Sequence record: MG833025.1
DNA length: 38,553 nucleotides
Origin: Escherichia phage T7
Direction: 5' to 3' (one strand)
Shown in pieces: positions 1 to 38,553 of the stretch. Position numbers and translations under genes: made by a program. Position 1 is the stretch's first letter, and the number at the start of each line of letters is the position of its first letter. The notes beneath the pieces were generated by a model that was not told the DNA's origin, did no database searches, and was given only the letters and a program-made list of their open reading frames with translations.

Positions 1-160
1 TCTCACAGTGTACGGACCTAAAGTTCCCCCATAGGGGGTACCTAAAGCCCAGCCAATCACCTAAAGTCAACCTTCGGTTGACCTTGAGGGTTCCCTAAGG
101 GTTGGGGATGACCCTTGGGTTTGTCTTTGGGTGTTACCTTGAGTGTCTCTCTGTGTCCCT
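1..160. repeat. Left direct terminal repeat, identical to 38394-38553
   Basis: The first 160 nt recur exactly at the right end; T7 has a 160-bp terminal redundancy. Confidence 0.95.
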
Positions 161-174
161 ATCTGTTACAGTCT

Positions 175-345
175 CCTAAAGTATCCTCCTAAAGTCACCT
201 CCTAACGTCCATCCTAAAGCCAACACCTAAAGCCTACACCTAAAGACCCATCAAGTCAACGCCTATCTTAAAGTTTAAACATAAAGACCAGACCTAAAGA
301 CCAGACCTAAAGACACTACATAAAGACCAGACCTAAAGACGCCTT
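175..345. repeat. Array of short CCTAAAG-family repeats next to the left terminal repeat
   Basis: Repeated cctaaag/acctaaag units, including the tandem agaccagacctaaag copies, are read directly; T7 has such repeats at its ends. Confidence 0.7.
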
Positions 346-387
346 GTTGTTAGCCATAAAGTGATAACCTTTAATCATTGTCTTTAT

Positions 388-410
388 TAATACAACTCAC
401 TATAAGGAGA
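388..410 (+). promoter_or_regulatory. T7 RNA polymerase promoter phiOL (left replication origin promoter)
   Basis: taatacaactcactataaggaga is a near-consensus 23-mer with +1 near 405. Confidence 0.85.
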
Positions 411-462
411 GACAACTTAAAGAGACTTAAAAGATTAATTTAAAATTTATCAAAAAGAGTAT

Positions 463-498
463 TGACTTAAAGTCTAACCTATAGGATACTTACAGCCA
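463..498 (+). promoter_or_regulatory. Host sigma70 early promoter A1
   Basis: -35 ttgact at 463-468 and -10 gatact at 485-490, at the known T7 A1 position. Confidence 0.85.
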
Positions 499-588
499 TC
501 GAGAGGGACACGGCGAATAGCCATCCCAATCGACACCGGGGTCAACCGGATAAGTAGACAGCCTGATAAGTCGCACGAAAAACAGGTA

Positions 589-626
589 TTGACAACATGA
601 AGTAACATGCAGTAAGATACAAATCG
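589..626 (+). promoter_or_regulatory. Host sigma70 early promoter A2
   Basis: -35 ttgaca at 589-594 and -10 taagat at 613-618. Confidence 0.85.
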
Positions 627-713
627 CTAGGTAACACTAGCAGCGTCAACCGGGCGCACAGTGCCTTCTAGGTGACTTAAGCGCACCACGGCACATAAGG
701 TGAAACAAAACGG

Positions 714-750
714 TTGACAACATGAAGTAAACACGGTACGATGTACCACA
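714..750 (+). promoter_or_regulatory. Host sigma70 early promoter A3
   Basis: -35 ttgaca at 714-719 and -10 tacgat at 737-742. Confidence 0.85.
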
Positions 751-924
751 TGAAACGACAGTGAGTCACCACACTGAAAGGTGATGCGGTCTAACGAAAC
801 CTGACCTAAGACGCTCTTTAACAATCTGGTAAATAGCTCTTGAGTGCATGACTAGCGGATAACTCAAGGGTATCGCAAGGTGCCCTTTATGATATTCACT
901 AATAACTGCACGAGGTAACACAAG

Positions 925-1278
925 ATGGCTATGTCTAACATGACTTACAACAACGTTTTCGACCACGCTTACGAAATGCTGAAAGAAAACATCCGTTATG
1001 ATGACATCCGTGACACTGATGACCTGCACGATGCTATTCACATGGCTGCCGATAATGCAGTTCCGCACTACTACGCTGACATCTTTAGCGTAATGGCAAG
1101 TGAGGGCATTGACCTTGAGTTCGAAGACTCTGGTCTGATGCCTGACACCAAGGACGTAATCCGCATCCTGCAAGCGCGTATCTATGAGCAATTAACGATT
1201 GACCTCTGGGAAGACGCAGAAGACTTGCTCAATGAATACTTGGAGGAAGTCGAGGAGTACGAGGAGGATGAAGAGTAA
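925..1278 (+). CDS. 0.3: Ocr, DNA-mimic inhibitor of type I restriction-modification
   Basis: 117-aa acidic protein [22 protein letters not shown]... matching T7 gp0.3, first gene after A1-A3. Confidence 0.95.
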
Positions 1279-1433
1279 TGTCTACTACCAACGTGCAATA
1301 CGGTCTGACCGCTCAAACTGTACTTTTCTATAGCGACATGGTGCGCTGTGGCTTTAACTGGTCACTCGCAATGGCACAGCTCAAAGAACTGTACGAAAAC
1401 AACAAGGCAATAGCTTTAGAATCTGCTGAGTGA
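1278..1433 (+). CDS. 0.4: Gene 0.4 small protein (51 aa)
   Basis: The ATG overlaps the 0.3 stop (taATG); [51 protein letters not shown]. It is below the ORF-track size cutoff. Confidence 0.8.
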   Translation: MSTTNVQYGLTAQTVLFYSDMVRCGFNWSLAMAQLKELYENNKAIALESAE

Positions 1434-1490
1434 TAGACTCAAGGTCGCTCCTAGCGAGTGGCCTTTTTGATTATCACTTTACTTATGAGG
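1434..1490 (+). promoter_or_regulatory. Probable RNase III processing site (R0.5-like) with the native gene 0.5 RBS
   Basis: actcaaggtcgctcctagcgagtggcc can form a hairpin like T7 RNase III sites; gaggga lies just before the ATG at 1496. Confidence 0.55.
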
Positions 1491-1495
1491 GAGTA

Positions 1496-2491
1496 ATGAG
1501 CATCGCGGCGACCCTGGAGAACGATCTGGCGCGTCTGGAAAACGAAAACGCTCGTCTCGAAAAAGACATCGCGAACCTGGAACGTGACCTGGCGAAACTG
1601 GAGCGTGAAGAAGCGTACTTCGGAGGTTCAGGTGGTAAGAACACTGGTGAAATCTCTGAGAAAGTCAAGCTGGGCACTAAGGCACTGGCTGGTCAATGGC
1701 TGGCTTACGGTGTTACTCGCAGTGTGACTAAGAGTTCAGTCATGACGCTGGCTTACGGGTCCAAAGAGTTCGGCTTCCGTCAACAAGTGCTGGAAGATAC
1801 CATTCAGCCAGCTATTGATTCCGGCAAGGGTCTGATGTTCACTCAGCCGAATCAGGCTGCTGGATACATGGCTAAGCTGATTTGGGAATCTGTGAGCGTG
1901 ACGGTGGTAGCTGCGGTTGAAGCAATGAACTGGCTTAAGTCTGCTGCTAAGCTGCTGGCTGCTGAGGTCAAAGATAAGAAGACTGGAGAGATTCTTCGCA
2001 AGCGTTGCGCTGTGCATTGGGTAACTCCTGATGGTTTCCCTGTGTGGCAGGAATACAAGAAGCCTATTCAGACGCGCTTGAACCTGATGTTCCTCGGTCA
2101 GTTCCGCTTACAGCCTACCATTAACACCAACAAAGATAGCGAGATTGATGCACACAAACAGGAGTCTGGTATCGCTCCTAACTTTGTACACAGCCAAGAC
2201 GGTAGCCACCTTCGTAAGACTGTAGTGTGGGCACACGAGAAGTACGGAATCGAATCTTTTGCACTGATTCACGACTCCTTCGGTACGATTCCGGCTGACG
2301 CTGCGAACCTGTTCAAAGCAGTGCGCGAAACTATGGTTGACACATATGAGTCTTGTGATGTACTGGCTGATTTCTACGACCAGTTCGCTGACCAGTTGCA
2401 CGAGTCTCAATTGGACAAAATGCCAGCACTTCCGGCTAAAGGTAACTTGAACCTCCGTGACATCTTAGAGTCGGACTTCGCGTTCGCGTAA
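1496..2491 (+). CDS. 1: Split T7 RNA polymerase, C-terminal fragment: Met, SYNZIP18-like coiled coil, GGSGG, Lys, polymerase residues 601-883 with apparent R632S
   Basis: Translation SIAATLENDLARLENENARLEKDIANLERDLAKLEREEAYF-GGSGG-KNTGEISEKV... runs to the polymerase C-terminus ...LRDILESDFAFA. It contains motif C (IHDSF, H811/D812) and the specificity-loop region. Confidence 0.93.
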   Translation: MSIAATLENDLARLENENARLEKDIANLERDLAKLEREEAYFGGSGGKNTGEISEKVKLGTKALAGQWLAYGVTRSVTKSSVMTLAYGSKEFGFRQQVLEDTIQPAIDSGKGLMFTQPNQAAGYMAKLIWESVSVTVVAAVEAMNWLKSAAKLLAAEVKDKKTGEILRKRCAVHWVTPDGFPVWQEYKKPIQTRLNLMFLGQFRLQPTINTNKDSEIDAHKQESGIAPNFVHSQDGSHLRKTVVWAHEKYGIESFALIHDSFGTIPADAANLFKAVRETMVDTYESCDVLADFYDQFADQLHESQLDKMPALPAKGNLNLRDILESDFAFA

Positions 2492-2510
2492 TAAAGAGGA
2501 GAAATACTAG
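2491..2510 (+). promoter_or_regulatory. Synthetic intercistronic RBS (aaagaggagaaa plus tactag spacer) after a double stop
   Basis: taataaagaggagaaatactagATG matches a standard synthetic-biology RBS part with an assembly scar; this is not native T7 sequence. Confidence 0.8.
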
Positions 2511-4463
2511 ATGAACACGATTAACATCGCTAAGAACGACTTCTCTGACATCGAACTGGCTGCTATCCCGTTCAACACTCTGGCTGACCATTACGGTGAG
2601 CGTTTAGCTCGCGAACAGTTGGCCCTTGAGCATGAGTCTTACGAGATGGGTGAAGCACGCTTCCGCAAGATGTTTGAGCGTCAACTTAAAGCTGGTGAGG
2701 TTGCGGATAACGCTGCCGCCAAGCCTCTCATCACTACCCTACTCCCTAAGATGATTGCACGCATCAACGACTGGTTTGAGGAAGTGAAAGCTAAGCGCGG
2801 CAAGCGCCCGACAGCCTTCCAGTTCCTGCAAGAAATCAAGCCGGAAGCCGTAGCGTACATCACCATTAAGACCACTCTGGCTTGCCTAACCAGTGCTGAC
2901 AATACAACCGTTCAGGCTGTAGCAAGCGCAATCGGTCGGGCCATTGAGGACGAGGCTCGCTTCGGTCGTATCCGTGACCTTGAAGCTAAGCACTTCAAGA
3001 AAAACGTTGAGGAACAACTCAACAAGCGCGTAGGGCACGTCTACAAGAAAGCATTTATGCAAGTTGTCGAGGCTGACATGCTCTCTAAGGGTCTACTCGG
3101 TGGCGAGGCGTGGTCTTCGTGGCATAAGGAAGACTCTATTCATGTAGGAGTACGCTGCATCGAGATGCTCATTGAGTCAACCGGAATGGTTAGCTTACAC
3201 CGCCAAAATGCTGGCGTAGTAGGTCAAGACTCTGAGACTATCGAACTCGCACCTGAATACGCTGAGGCTATCGCAACCCGTGCAGGTGCGCTGGCTGGCA
3301 TCTCTCCGATGTTCCAACCTTGCGTAGTTCCTCCTAAGCCGTGGACTGGCATTACTGGTGGTGGCTATTGGGCTAACGGTCGTCGTCCTCTGGCGCTGGT
3401 GCGTACTCACAGTAAGAAAGCACTGATGCGCTACGAAGACGTTTACATGCCTGAGGTGTACAAAGCGATTAACATTGCGCAAAACACCGCATGGAAAATC
3501 AACAAGAAAGTCCTAGCGGTCGCCAACGTAATCACCAAGTGGAAGCATTGTCCGGTCGAGGACATCCCTGCGATTGAGCGTGAAGAACTCCCGATGAAAC
3601 CGGAAGACATCGACATGAATCCTGAGGCTCTCACCGCGTGGAAACGTGCTGCCGCTGCTGTGTACCGCAAGGACAAGGCTCGCAAGTCTCGCCGTATCAG
3701 CCTTGAGTTCATGCTTGAGCAAGCCAATAAGTTTGCTAACCATAAGGCCATCTGGTTCCCTTACAACATGGACTGGCGCGGTCGTGTTTACGCTGTGTCA
3801 ATGTTCAACCCGCAAGGTAACGATATGACCAAAGGACTGCTTACGCTGGCGAAAGGTAAACCAATCGGTAAGGAAGGTTACTACTGGCTGAAAATCCACG
3901 GTGCAAACTGTGCGGGTGTCGACAAGGTTCCGTTCCCTGAGCGCATCAAGTTCATTGAGGAAAACCACGAGAACATCATGGCTTGCGCTAAGTCTCCACT
4001 GGAGAACACTTGGTGGGCTGAGCAAGATTCTCCGTTCTGCTTCCTTGCGTTCTGCTTTGAGTACGCTGGGGTACAGCACCACGGCCTGAGCTATAACTGC
4101 TCCCTTCCGCTGGCGTTTGACGGGTCTTGCTCTGGCATCCAGCACTTCTCCGCGATGCTCCGAGATGAGGTAGGTGGTCGCGCGGTTAACTTGCTTCCTA
4201 GTGAAACCGTTCAGGACATCTACGGGATTGTTGCTAAGAAAGTCAACGAGATTCTACAAGCAGACGCAATCAATGGGACCGATAACGAAGTAGTTACCGT
4301 GACCGATGAGAACGGAGGTTCAGGTGGTGGATCCAACGAAAAAGAAGAACTGAAATCCAAAAAAGCGGAACTGCGCAACCGTATCGAACAGCTGAAACAG
4401 AAACGTGAACAACTGAAGCAGAAAATCGCGAACCTGCGTAAAGAAATCGAAGCTTACAAATAA
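2511..4463 (+). CDS. 1: Split T7 RNA polymerase, N-terminal fragment: residues 1-601, GGSGGGS, SYNZIP17-like coiled coil
   Basis: MNTINIAKNDFSDIELAAIPFNTLADHYGERLAREQ... runs to ...NEVVTVTDEN, then GGSGGGS and NEKEELKSKKAELRNRIEQLKQKREQLKQKIANLRKEIEAYK. It contains motif A (D537). Confidence 0.93.
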   Translation: MNTINIAKNDFSDIELAAIPFNTLADHYGERLAREQLALEHESYEMGEARFRKMFERQLKAGEVADNAAAKPLITTLLPKMIARINDWFEEVKAKRGKRPTAFQFLQEIKPEAVAYITIKTTLACLTSADNTTVQAVASAIGRAIEDEARFGRIRDLEAKHFKKNVEEQLNKRVGHVYKKAFMQVVEADMLSKGLLGGEAWSSWHKEDSIHVGVRCIEMLIESTGMVSLHRQNAGVVGQDSETIELAPEYAEAIATRAGALAGISPMFQPCVVPPKPWTGITGGGYWANGRRPLALVRTHSKKALMRYEDVYMPEVYKAINIAQNTAWKINKKVLAVANVITKWKHCPVEDIPAIEREELPMKPEDIDMNPEALTAWKRAAAAVYRKDKARKSRRISLEFMLEQANKFANHKAIWFPYNMDWRGRVYAVSMFNPQGNDMTKGLLTLAKGKPIGKEGYYWLKIHGANCAGVDKVPFPERIKFIEENHENIMACAKSPLENTWWAEQDSPFCFLAFCFEYAGVQHHGLSYNCSLPLAFDGSCSGIQHFSAMLRDEVGGRAVNLLPSETVQDIYGIVAKKVNEILQADAINGTDNEVVTVTDENGGSGGGSNEKEELKSKKAELRNRIEQLKQKREQLKQKIANLRKEIEAYK

Positions 4464-4520
4464 GAGGGACAAACTCAAGGTCATTCGCAAGAGTGGCCTT
4501 TATGATTGACCTTCTTCCGG
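4464..4520 (+). promoter_or_regulatory. RNase III processing site R1.1 region
   Basis: gagggacaaactcaaggtcattcgcaagagtggcctttatgattgacc has a hairpin-capable actcaagg...gagtggcc motif like other T7 RNase III sites. Confidence 0.55.
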
Positions 4521-4521
4521 T

Positions 4522-4544
4522 TAATACGACTCACTATAGGAGAA
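4522..4544 (+). promoter_or_regulatory. T7 promoter phi1.1B
   Basis: taatacgactcactataggagaa, +1 near 4539. Confidence 0.9.
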
Positions 4545-4622
4545 CCTTAAGGTTTAACTTTAAGACCCTTAAGTGTTAATTAGAGATTTAAATTAAAGAA
4601 TTACTAAGAGAGGACTTTAAGT
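4545..4622. other. AT-rich region of the primary origin of replication
   Basis: AT-rich tract ttaaggtttaactttaag...agatttaaattaaagaattac just downstream of phi1.1B, where the T7 primary origin lies. Confidence 0.6.
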
Positions 4623-4751
4623 ATGCGTAACTTCGAAAAGATGACCAAACGTTCTAACCGTAATGCTCGTGACTTCGAGGCAACCAAAGGTCGCAAGTTG
4701 AATAAGACTAAGCGTGACCGCTCTCACAAGCGTAGCTGGGAGGGTCAGTAA
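4623..4751 (+). CDS. 1.1: Gene 1.1 small basic protein (42 aa)
   Basis: MRNFEKMTKRSNRNARDFEATKGRKLNKTKRDRSHKRSWEGQ with RBS gagagga upstream. Confidence 0.8.
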   Translation: MRNFEKMTKRSNRNARDFEATKGRKLNKTKRDRSHKRSWEGQ

Positions 4752-4752
4752 G

Positions 4753-5010
4753 ATGGGACGTTTATATAGTGGTAATCTGGCAGCATTCAAGGCAGCAACA
4801 AACAAGCTGTTCCAGTTAGACTTAGCGGTCATTTATGATGACTGGTATGATGCCTATACAAGAAAAGATTGCATACGGTTACGTATTGAGGACAGGAGTG
4901 GAAACCTGATTGATACTAGCACCTTCTACCACCACGACGAGGACGTTCTGTTCAATATGTGTACTGATTGGTTGAACCATATGTATGACCAGTTGAAGGA
5001 CTGGAAGTAA
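4753..5010 (+). CDS. 1.2: Gene 1.2, inhibitor of host dGTPase
   Basis: MGRLYSGNLAAFKAATNKLFQLDLAVIYDDWYDAY... 85 aa. Confidence 0.85.
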   Translation: MGRLYSGNLAAFKAATNKLFQLDLAVIYDDWYDAYTRKDCIRLRIEDRSGNLIDTSTFYHHDEDVLFNMCTDWLNHMYDQLKDWK

Positions 5011-5030
5011 TACGACTCAGTATAGGGACA
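5008..5030 (+). promoter_or_regulatory. T7 promoter phi1.3
   Basis: taatacgactcagtatagggaca, +1 near 5025. Confidence 0.9.
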
Positions 5031-5090
5031 ATGCTTAAGGTCGCTCTCTAGGAGTGGCCTTAGTCATTTAACCAATAGGAGATAAACATT

Positions 5091-6170
5091 ATGATGAACA
5101 TTAAGACTAACCCGTTTAAAGCCGTGTCTTTCGTAGAGTCTGCCATTAAGAAGGCTCTGGATAACGCTGGGTATCTTATCGCTGAAATCAAGTACGATGG
5201 TGTACGCGGGAACATCTGCGTAGACAATACTGCTAACAGTTACTGGCTCTCTCGTGTATCTAAAACGATTCCGGCACTGGAGCACTTAAACGGGTTTGAT
5301 GTTCGCTGGAAGCGTCTACTGAACGATGACCGTTGCTTCTACAAAGATGGCTTTATGCTTGATGGGGAACTCATGGTCAAGGGCGTAGACTTTAACACAG
5401 GGTCCGGCCTACTGCGTACCAAATGGACTGACACGAAGAACCAAGAGTTCCATGAAGAGTTATTCGTTGAACCAATCCGTAAGAAAGATAAAGTTCCCTT
5501 TAAGCTGCACACTGGACACCTTCACATAAAACTGTACGCTATCCTCCCGCTGCACATCGTGGAGTCTGGAGAAGACTGTGATGTCATGACGTTGCTCATG
5601 CAGGAACACGTTAAGAACATGCTGCCTCTGCTACAGGAATACTTCCCTGAAATCGAATGGCAAGCGGCTGAATCTTACGAGGTCTACGATATGGTAGAAC
5701 TACAGCAACTGTACGAGCAGAAGCGAGCAGAAGGCCATGAGGGTCTCATTGTGAAAGACCCGATGTGTATCTATAAGCGCGGTAAGAAATCTGGCTGGTG
5801 GAAAATGAAACCTGAGAACGAAGCTGACGGTATCATTCAGGGTCTGGTATGGGGTACAAAAGGTCTGGCTAATGAAGGTAAAGTGATTGGTTTTGAGGTG
5901 CTTCTTGAGAGTGGTCGTTTAGTTAACGCCACGAATATCTCTCGCGCCTTAATGGATGAGTTCACTGAGACAGTAAAAGAGGCCACCCTAAGTCAATGGG
6001 GATTCTTTAGCCCATACGGTATTGGCGACAACGATGCTTGTACTATTAACCCTTACGATGGCTGGGCGTGTCAAATTAGCTACATGGAGGAAACACCTGA
6101 TGGCTCTTTGCGGCACCCATCGTTCGTAATGTTCCGTGGCACCGAGGACAACCCTCAAGAGAAAATGTAA
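5091..6170 (+). CDS. 1.3: ATP-dependent DNA ligase
   Basis: 359 aa with the KYDGVRG adenylation motif (lysine nucleotidyltransferase motif I). Confidence 0.95.
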   Translation: MMNIKTNPFKAVSFVESAIKKALDNAGYLIAEIKYDGVRGNICVDNTANSYWLSRVSKTIPALEHLNGFDVRWKRLLNDDRCFYKDGFMLDGELMVKGVDFNTGSGLLRTKWTDTKNQEFHEELFVEPIRKKDKVPFKLHTGHLHIKLYAILPLHIVESGEDCDVMTLLMQEHVKNMLPLLQEYFPEIEWQAAESYEVYDMVELQQLYEQKRAEGHEGLIVKDPMCIYKRGKKSGWWKMKPENEADGIIQGLVWGTKGLANEGKVIGFEVLLESGRLVNATNISRALMDEFTETVKEATLSQWGFFSPYGIGDNDACTINPYDGWACQISYMEETPDGSLRHPSFVMFRGTEDNPQEKM

Positions 6171-6175
6171 TCACA

Positions 6176-6210
6176 CTGGCTCACCTTCGGGTGGGCCTTT
6201 CTGCGTTTAT
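6176..6210 (+). terminator. Early intrinsic terminator TE for host RNA polymerase
   Basis: GC-rich hairpin ggctcacc-ttcg-ggtgggcc followed by tttctgcgttta. Confidence 0.8.
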
Positions 6211-38393: not shown

Positions 38394-38553
38394 TCTCACA
38401 GTGTACGGACCTAAAGTTCCCCCATAGGGGGTACCTAAAGCCCAGCCAATCACCTAAAGTCAACCTTCGGTTGACCTTGAGGGTTCCCTAAGGGTTGGGG
38501 ATGACCCTTGGGTTTGTCTTTGGGTGTTACCTTGAGTGTCTCTCTGTGTCCCT
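38394..38553. repeat. Right direct terminal repeat
   Basis: Identical to 1-160. Confidence 0.95.

Follow-up and report, generated by a model that had tools for sequence, protein, structure and literature searches.

A predicted RNase III-processed bicistronic message for the two RNA polymerase fragments of an engineered bacteriophage T7

The early precursor transcript of bacteriophage T7 is processed while it is being transcribed: cleavage at five sites yields mono- and dicistronic mRNAs (PMC4858673). When the polymerase gene is divided into two cistrons, it might be asked whether the two fragments are still expressed from one processed mRNA bounded by two RNase III sites, as the initial annotation of this DNA proposed, or from separate messages. 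The locus also raises the question of where such a message would begin and end, and whether sharing it could balance the amounts of the two proteins.

A T7 genome with a split and reordered polymerase

By its sequence, the window, the whole stretch of 38,553 bases analysed here, is a complete T7 genome engineered to split the RNA polymerase into two zipper-tagged fragments, encoded in reversed order. Comparison with T7 gives the layout T7 1-1498, insert, and T7 5847-39937, the right arm being 100% identical. Genes 0.5-0.7, the RNase III site R1, gene 1, and the upstream part of promoter phi1.1A have been replaced by a SynZIP18-sigma fragment, a 19-base ribosome-binding-site spacer, and an alpha-beta-SynZIP17 fragment, in this order; the minor promoter C, R1, and phi1.1A are all missing from the window. 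The insert agrees with the published split-polymerase design (PMC4299498, PMC6009699), namely SZ18-601:883 with R632S, the 19-base spacer, and 1:601-SZ17. Judged by these features and by the bases at positions 1486, 1893, 1929, and 4297 of the paper, all of them ancestral, the construct matches phage JB 13-78 of Garry et al. 2018, from which gene 0.7 was deleted (PMC6009699).

The first cistron encodes Met, the SynZIP18 zipper, a GGSGG linker, and residues from about 601 to 883 of T7 RNA polymerase with R632S; the cistron's start codon and ribosome-binding site are those of T7 gene 0.5. The spacer adds a further stop codon and supplies a Shine-Dalgarno sequence. The second cistron encodes residues 1-601 of the polymerase, a GGSGGGS linker, and the SynZIP17 zipper, and its stop codon (4461-4463) adjoins the lower stem of the site R1.1 (Table 1). 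The early terminator TE, annotated at T7 7588 (6204 in the window), ends the early transcript of the host polymerase.

Table 1. Features of the early region in the window
Feature	Position	Strand	Basis
T7 promoter phiOL, just upstream of A1	388-405	+	T7-promoter search, T7 annotation
Promoter A1 (host polymerase, early)	462-490	+	promoter scan, T7 annotation
Promoter A2 (host polymerase, early)	589-618	+	promoter scan, T7 annotation
Promoter A3 (host polymerase, early)	714-742	+	promoter scan, T7 annotation
RNase III site R0.3	852-905	+	covariance-model match, 49.1 bits
RNase III site R0.5	1427-1482	+	identical to T7 1427-1482 at 55/56 bases, mismatch at 1467; 45.8 bits, E 1.8e-9
A-to-T substitution relative to T7	1467	+	comparison with NC_001604
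First cistron (sigma fragment)	1496-2491	+	translation, comparison with T7 gene 1
Synthetic spacer TAAAGAGGAGAAATACTAG, 19 bases	2492-2510	+	read from sequence
Second cistron (alpha-beta or 'core' fragment)	2511-4463	+	comparison with T7 gene 1
RNase III site R1.1	4463-4517	+	100% identical to T7 5847-5901; 53.2 bits, E 1.9e-11
RNase III site R1.3, next processing site downstream of R1.1	5024-5079	+	covariance-model match, 45.7 bits
Early terminator TE	6178-6204	+	hairpin 6178-6197 followed by a U-rich tail (fold)

Two hairpins flanking the fragment genes

The pattern ACTCAAGGTC-N(8-16)-GAGTGGCC has exactly two matches in the whole 38,553 bases, at 1437-1463 and 4473-4498, both on the + strand, and none in 100 dinucleotide-preserving shuffles, with 0 expected by chance. 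The shared hairpin motif proposed just upstream of the first cistron and just downstream of the second is therefore borne out, although the spans of about 30 nt given for the elements were too short, the covariance model extending both to their full size (Table 1). RNA folding, which the initial annotation had suggested, produces the same two-helix hairpin in both; its helices, roughly 10 bp in the upper part and 9 bp in the lower, are separated by an asymmetric internal loop of four nucleotides on the 5' side and five on the 3' side. In the upstream element (1421-1492 folded; -22.8 kcal/mol, z -2.1), the lower stem pairs 1428-1436 with 1471-1479 and the upper stem 1441-1450 with 1456-1465, around the internal loop ACUC / U(U)UGA. 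The downstream element (4458-4525 folded; -22.9 kcal/mol, z -4.0) pairs 4462-4472 with 4506-4516 and 4477-4486 with 4491-4500, closed by a GCAA loop.

Their agreement with T7 identifies the two hairpins as the RNase III sites R0.5, with one base changed, and R1.1, unchanged. Both are located inside the early transcription unit, downstream of A1-A3 and upstream of TE: R0.5 follows gene 0.4 and precedes the sigma cistron, and R1.1 separates the alpha-beta cistron from phi1.1B/gene 1.1. They thus keep their wild-type positions relative to genes 0.4 and 1.1, as well as the two-helix internal-loop architecture with its expected single cut at U↓G. What precedes R1.1 differs, being the end of the SynZIP17 coding sequence here and phi1.1A promoter sequence in wild-type T7. 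On the basis of this comparison, R0.5 and R1.1 are native T7 signals in unmodified DNA and were not placed by design; they have been retained because the T7-delta-1 deletion ends just short of both. We considered deliberate bracketing of the operon by the two sites and rejected it, since the flanking DNA is unmodified T7 sequence next to that pre-existing deletion. The same R0.5/R1.1 pair sets the RNA ends around an engineered insert in the RIIIG terminator-measurement device (Cambray et al. 2013, PMC3643576); there, the pairing is deliberate and brackets a terminator between two reporters, whereas in the engineered phage it results incidentally from where the deletion ends.

A sliding 70-nt minimum-energy scan was discarded as a site detector: the coding window 3095-3164 (-26.5 kcal/mol) is as stable as the true sites. 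Because stability alone does not discriminate, we relied on a covariance model (55 positions, 19 pairs) trained on five other T7 sites, with R0.5 and R1.1 excluded and R3.8 left out of the alignment as out of register. This leave-out model recovers both R0.5 and R1.1 at full length. Its matches coincide with annotated RNase III stem-loops in T3 and phiSG-JL2, where R0.5, R1, and R1.1 occupy the same relative positions. Across 46 sites from nine phages, 90.7% of the cells are paired (72.5% in shuffles) and double-sided changes number 131 (42.5 in shuffles), with 12 pairs showing them, while slid registers are paired at only 30-47%.

Elsewhere in the genome, the coordinates 18852 for R6.5 and 27281 for R13 were considered and rejected. 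The 70 nt around the former fold weakly (-7.7 kcal/mol), and the model puts R6.5 at 17119-17189 of the window instead; the latter position falls in a long helix that includes the phi13 promoter and not in a two-helix site. An Rfam scan of the whole window returned no family at the gathering score, and T7 RNase III sites appear not to constitute an Rfam family.

The predicted message and the interval between the sites

Single cleavage in the internal loop leaves protective 3' hairpins on the products, and proximal-box rules for RNase III reactivity have been formulated (PMC1540722). R1.1 presents the full set of proximal-box pairs (G-C, A-U, A-U, and a weak pair) and the conserved loop ...CCUU-UAU↓GA; the proximal box of R0.5 is also present (GC/AU/AU/C-U), with UUU↓GA where the conserved form is UAU↓GA. 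The 5' boundary of the message is predicted between U1468 and G1469, a position reported by Dunn & Studier 1983 and consistent with the aligned U↓G of all sites. The 3' boundary is predicted between U4503 and G4504, so that the hairpin stays on the 3' end of the message. R1.1 RNA has been shown to be cut at one phosphodiester into products of 47 and 13 nt (PMC4858673), and R0.5 and R1.1 function as portable processing sites in synthetic constructs (PMC3643576).

R1, the usual separator of the 0.7 and gene 1 messages, would have been lost with the replaced DNA according to the initial annotation. R1 (T7 3100-3153) is indeed absent from the window because the T7 homology of the N-terminal fragment begins only at T7 3166. 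In eight of the nine relatives examined, R1 is located directly upstream of the polymerase gene. Wild-type T7, with R1 between R0.5 and R1.1, has two messages bounded by these sites (0.5-0.7 and gene 1), in contrast to the one message of the engineered phage.

The interval itself holds no similar element, in agreement with the earlier claim: neither the motif search nor the covariance model gave a match there, the latter on the + strand of 1483-4462 even at E<=10. The spacer shows no hairpin, RNase III-like element, or model match, and the synthetic zipper and spacer segments together show no outstanding hairpin and no long inverted repeats. No T7 promoter was found between 406 and 4521 by the T7-promoter search, and the scan of the R0.5-R1.1 interval detected no sigma-70-like promoter or terminator-like hairpin on the + strand. 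It is very improbable that cryptic cleavage between or within the cistrons, by RNase E or by RNase III at a helix of a type different from the T7 sites, splits the fragments onto separate messages. Such cleavage could draw on the coding windows 3095-3164 and 1900-1969 (-25.4 kcal/mol), which match true sites in stability, and RNase E sites are beyond prediction by the methods used. However, these stable windows are native gene 1 sequence. In wild-type T7, gene 1 yields a discrete early mRNA, and the early precursor contains just five sites for RNase III (PMC4858673); the lack of a model match and of notable structure in the synthetic segments also speaks against it. It can be noted as a counterpoint that several coding windows equal the true sites in stability, so thermodynamics is insufficient as an argument against cryptic cleavage.

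With both sites retained, R1 gone, and no further such site found on the + strand between them, the proposal of one processed mRNA bounded by two RNase III sites is supported. The two fragment genes are probably carried on a single RNase III-processed bicistronic message from G1469 to U4503, as far as can be read from the sequence. Host RNA polymerase would initiate at A1-A3 and transcribe on to TE, and RNase III would cut each site once in the 3' strand of its internal loop, directly after U1468 and U4503. Since R1 is deleted, these cuts would release one RNA of 3035 nt, comprising a 27-nt leader, the sigma cistron, the 19-nt spacer, and the alpha-beta cistron, and the R1.1 hairpin kept on its 3' end should protect it against 3' exonucleases. 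Such a message is the expected outcome because the two T7 sites lie in the early unit, no RNase III-like site, T7 promoter, or + strand terminator-like hairpin was found between them, and the authors of the engineered phage describe the fragments as 'on the same transcript' (PMC6009699); it is an ordinary consequence of T7 biology that is already known. The dicistronic 0.3-0.4 and 1.1-1.2 messages of wild-type T7 likewise arise by flanking RNase III cuts that leave a 3' hairpin on the product. The engineered cistrons differ from them in being halves of one enzyme that need assembly, with a synthetic spacer and second ribosome-binding site.

A single-base change in R0.5 and the balance of the fragments

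The sole mismatch between window positions 1-1498 and NC_001604 is A1467T, which changes ATG to TTG and GGCCUUUAU to GGCCUUUUU. The base belongs to the 3' strand of the internal loop of R0.5, where a single nucleotide (U1468) separates it from the predicted cut, and the stretch containing it has no 100% match among 230 phage records. The equivalent column in the 46 related sites reads A35/G10/C1/U0, and A occupies it in all 48 distinct contexts from an IMG/VR pattern search (78 loci). In the RNA, the conserved U-A/U-G opposition beside the scissile bond becomes U-U, and a run of U5 arises 3' of the hairpin. The cleavage efficiency at the 5' boundary is uncertain because a U was never seen in the 46 sites or the 48 contexts.

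Poor cutting of R0.5, caused by A1467U and the missing gp0.7 kinase, would move the 5' boundary to the R0.3 cut after 890, and the main message, ending at the R1.1 cut, would be an RNA of about 3.6 kb with 0.3, 0.4, sigma, and alpha-beta. We assign this outcome a small, though not negligible, chance. Position 1467, a purine in 45 of the 46 related sites, faces U1439 (U in 45 of the 46) next to the proximal box, in a region whose base identities influence reactivity towards RNase III (PMC1540722). A deletion of 1180-1534, which lacks R0.5 entirely, still rose to about 50% frequency (PMC6009699), and R0.5 cleavage is therefore dispensable. On the other hand, the predicted minimum-energy fold and its energy (-22.8 kcal/mol) are the same with or without the substitution, the model score drops only from 49.3 to 45.8 bits, and neither the upper stem nor proximal-box pairs 1-4 are disrupted. 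The deletion of gene 0.7 is a counterpoint to the reading of a message trimmed at R0.5, as the kinase stimulates RNase III, raising kcat about 5-fold (PMC4858673); nevertheless, the sites are processed by RNase III without the T7 kinase in uninfected cells (PMC3643576).

The same base could act through transcription if the mutated R0.5, whose 10-bp hairpin precedes UUUUUGAUU, served host RNA polymerase as a partial intrinsic terminator. Fewer transcripts would then extend into the polymerase fragments, contributing to the very low initial fitness. The window scan flags 1441-1465 plus TTTGATTATC but leaves wild-type R0.5 unflagged, the upper hairpin folds at -13.6 kcal/mol, and both T1486G and the 1180-1534 deletion, which removes the hairpin, fit selection for more expression of the first cistron. 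We nonetheless regard termination at R0.5 as quite unlikely: the scan is a bare consensus match with a regional count not above shuffles, the U-run has only five bases with two further U's paired in the stem, the lower stem competes for the U-tract region, and 1467 did not revert during adaptation (PMC6009699). Partial termination would be compatible with RNase III trimming of the transcripts that read through.

The authors attribute the million-fold initial fitness defect to protein fragmentation alone (PMC6009699). That A1467U is functionally important, through weaker RNase III cleavage or a hairpin-U5 partial terminator that alters or lowers fragment expression and adds to the defect, is unlikely in our estimate. 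The undocumented substitution at the point where R0.5 would be cut could confound the attenuation study.

The suggestion that a shared message helps balance expression found no support, since the two cistrons have ribosome-binding sites of unequal predicted strength and accessibility. Sharing a message would fix the template ratio at 1:1, and the protein ratio would still be set by the two different sites. In the evolved phage, a change arose at T1486, in the leader just upstream of the first cistron (PMC6009699), and T1486G improves the predicted anti-SD pairing from -8.0 to -10.7 kcal/mol.

In summary, both polymerase halves are expected to be made from one RNase III-trimmed message of 3.0 kb, with 1:1 templates and co-localised translation. 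Because one message would give a 1:1 template ratio, explanations of the fitness defect and of its recovery should be looked for in the translation of the first cistron and in how the protein assembles or functions, rather than in transcript stoichiometry. The practical value of this result lies in interpreting the attenuation study, and it has little importance beyond this construct.

Identity and layout of the construct

The window is the published JB 13-78 design, an exact fit to the description of T7-delta-1 carrying the split polymerase in reversed order (Garry, Ellington, Molineux, Bull 2018, PMC6009699; GenBank MG833025). The underlying SynZIP17/18 split of T7 RNA polymerase at residue 601 was described by Segall-Shapiro et al. 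2014 (PMC4299498). T7 phage records matched 1200-4700 by megablast at 99.8% identity, but the match was split into four pieces that together span just 91% of the query, and the layout was taken from a comparison of the whole window with T7 NC_001604. The 160-bp direct terminal repeat (1-160 and 38394-38553) is identical to the T7 terminal redundancy, so the window is a complete linear genome. The polymerase differs from T7 at window positions 1733, 2287 and 3923: the C-to-A change at 1733 produces R632S, the low-toxicity 'T7*' allele, and the silent changes at 2287 and 3923 abolish a GGTACC site and generate GTCGAC, respectively. Ancestral bases occupy the positions 1486, 1893, 1929 and 4297 of PMC6009699, and the codon changes agree. 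Table 1 of that paper places mutations in genes 6.7, 17 and 19 at 17498, 33991 and 36465, exactly 38 below the window codons at 17536, 34029 and 36503, with agreement up to 4297. It seems that the calling reference was 38 bases shorter between 4297 and 17498, or that Table 1 mixes coordinate systems.

Features of the split-polymerase phage genome
Feature	Position	Strand	Content	Basis
Left arm	1-1498		T7 1-1498	whole-window comparison with NC_001604
R0.5	1427-1482	+	45.8 bits, E 1.8e-9	covariance model
Cistron 1	1496-2491		Met, 40-residue zipper, GGSGG, T7 RNA polymerase ~601 to 883, R632S	translation
Polymerase segment in cistron 1	1638-2491		T7 4969-5822	whole-window comparison with NC_001604
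Second polymerase segment	2506-4313		T7 3166-4973	whole-window comparison with NC_001604
Cistron 2	2511-4463		polymerase residues 1-601, GGSGGGS, second zipper	translation
Right arm	4463-38553		T7 5847-39937, 100% identity	whole-window comparison with NC_001604
R1.1	4463-4517	+	53.2 bits, E 1.9e-11	covariance model
TE (early terminator)	6178-6204		present	
R6.5 (presumed)	17119-17189		29.8 bits, weaker; overlaps phi6.5 promoter 17144-17161	covariance model

RNase III sites and the predicted processed message

The initial annotation judged that both polymerase fragments probably lie on one processed mRNA bounded by two RNase III sites, and T7 biology together with the published construct supports this arrangement. 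The shared motif it described, taken as ACTCAAGGTC-N(8-16)-GAGTGGCC, has exactly two matches, at 1437-1463 and 4473-4498 on the cistron flanks, and none in 100 shuffles. RNA folding bore out the hairpin capacity of both elements, each forming two helices, one lower and one upper, on either side of an asymmetric internal loop (1421-1492, -22.8 kcal/mol, z -2.1; 4458-4525, -22.9 kcal/mol, z -4.0). Judged by coordinate and sequence, these regions are T7 R0.5 and R1.1, respectively; R1.1 is the same as in T7, and R0.5 has one differing base, at 1467. Certain stretches of native gene 1 match true RNase III sites in fold stability, which is therefore not diagnostic on its own; during wild-type infection, however, the mRNA of gene 1 is seen as one discrete species.

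A covariance model was built from five other T7 sites (R0.3, R1, R1.3, R4.7 and R18.5), leaving out R0.5 and R1.1, and searched against the whole window with filters off. The coordinates of the five follow Dunn & Studier 1983 and were checked by folding, and their RNAalifold structure had the expected 9 + 10 pairs, with double-sided changes in 10 pairs. The model found again all four training sites still present and recovered three from outside the training set, R1.1, R0.5 and R6.5. Across nine T7-like early regions it matched 46 sites, and all the RNase III stem-loops annotated in T3 and phiSG-JL2 coincide with sites in this set. In the 46-site alignment, which carries the caveat of having been fitted to the model, standard pairs filled 90.7% of cells; this share was 72.5% in shuffles and 30-47% when the register was slid. 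Double-sided changes filled 131 cells versus 42.5 in shuffles. R3.8 was matched weakly and in part (9789-9824, 11.6 bits, E 2.7), and no + strand match fell at ~25897, where R13 is expected, so these two sites seem to be of a different architecture.

That no similar element lies between the cistrons held even at E<=10, where the model had no + strand match in 1483-4462. Scans of this interval found neither a sigma-70-like promoter nor a terminator-like hairpin on the + strand, and the synthetic zipper and spacer segments contained no long inverted repeat and no outstanding local fold. The host promoters A1-A3 are intact (462-742); the minor host promoter C fell within deleted DNA, and promoter B (T7 1514) is disrupted because its position is past the 1498 junction. 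Among T7 promoters, phiOL (388-405) alone precedes the R0.5-R1.1 interval, and the next is phi1.1B (4522-4539), phi1.1A being absent.

R1.1 is cleaved at a single phosphodiester into 47 + 13 nt products (PMC4858673), single internal-loop cleavage leaves a 3' hairpin protective against 3'-5' exonucleases (PMC1540722), and in synthetic constructs both R0.5 and R1.1 work as portable processing signals (PMC3643576). Cleavage after U1468 and after U4503 would release a 3035-nt RNA, which would comprise, in order, a 27-nt leader, the cistron for the sigma fragment, the 19-nt spacer TAAAGAGGAGAAATACTAG, the cistron for the alpha-beta (core) fragment and the R1.1 hairpin at the 3' end. The stop codon of the alpha-beta cistron (4461-4463) adjoins the lower stem of R1.1 on its 5' strand, an arrangement with a natural precedent in gene 0.4, whose stop codon falls within the lower stem of R0.5. 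The junction (4461-4468) adds one A-U pair to the R1.1 lower stem compared with wild-type T7, and ribosomes terminating there would transiently open this stem. According to the source authors, both fragments are carried on one transcript (PMC6009699), and the predicted processed message follows from textbook T7 biology in a published construct.

The substitution in R0.5

A1467T, the sole left-arm difference from T7, lies in the R0.5 internal loop, one base 5' of the nucleotide preceding the predicted cut. It was absent from 230/230 matching phage records and has no mention in the source paper (PMC6009699). The equivalent column held A35/G10/C1/U0 among the 46 related sites and A in 48/48 distinct IMG/VR contexts. 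The opposing base, U1439, is U in 45/46 sites, so the substitution turns a conserved U-A/U-G opposition into U-U. An ATG becomes TTG as well, so that an upstream 9-codon mini-ORF loses its start, and the run of U that follows the hairpin grows to five; a pattern scan flagged R0.5 of the window, and not wild-type R0.5, as terminator-like. Folding predicts the same minimum-energy structure, at the same energy, with and without the substitution, and the model score drops slightly, from 49.3 bits in the wild type to 45.8. JB 13-78 also lacks the gp0.7 kinase, which increases the kcat of RNase III ~5-fold (PMC4858673). With this loss and A1467T, the 5' boundary of the message is the less certain of its two ends; neither change would separate the two cistrons.

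Proposed expression balance and natural precedent

The proposal that a shared message balances expression is speculative, since sharing equalises the template ratio and not translation. Anti-SD pairing is predicted at -8.0 kcal/mol for sigma, where the paired bases nearly touch the AUG, against -9.1 kcal/mol for alpha-beta. In the processed leader, the ribosome-binding region of sigma has a predicted probability of 0.38 of being unpaired; for that of alpha-beta the value is 0.73. The sigma Shine-Dalgarno and AUG are thus predicted to be partly sequestered in the processed leader (1469-1498). In the published adaptation, the intergenic T1486G was fixed, and a 1180-1534 deletion that removed R0.5 and fused gene 0.3 to the zipper rose transiently to ~50% frequency (PMC6009699). 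By calculation, T1486G creates the near-consensus UAGGAGG with better spacing and a pairing of -10.7 kcal/mol. Both events are compatible with limiting first-cistron expression and show that R0.5 cleavage is dispensable. Because the ribosome-binding sites differ and the leader evolved, the balancing idea stays speculative.

The R1 site between gene 0.7 and gene 1 is lost from the window, as had been suggested, whereas 8/9 T7-like relatives keep R1 directly upstream of the polymerase gene. Citrobacter phage CR8 (2597-3460) is the sole relative of the nine without an RNase III-like site there. Its nearest such site follows gene 0.7, so that the polymerase message would include three small genes, and CR8 can be taken as a precedent in nature for a polymerase mRNA with several cistrons.
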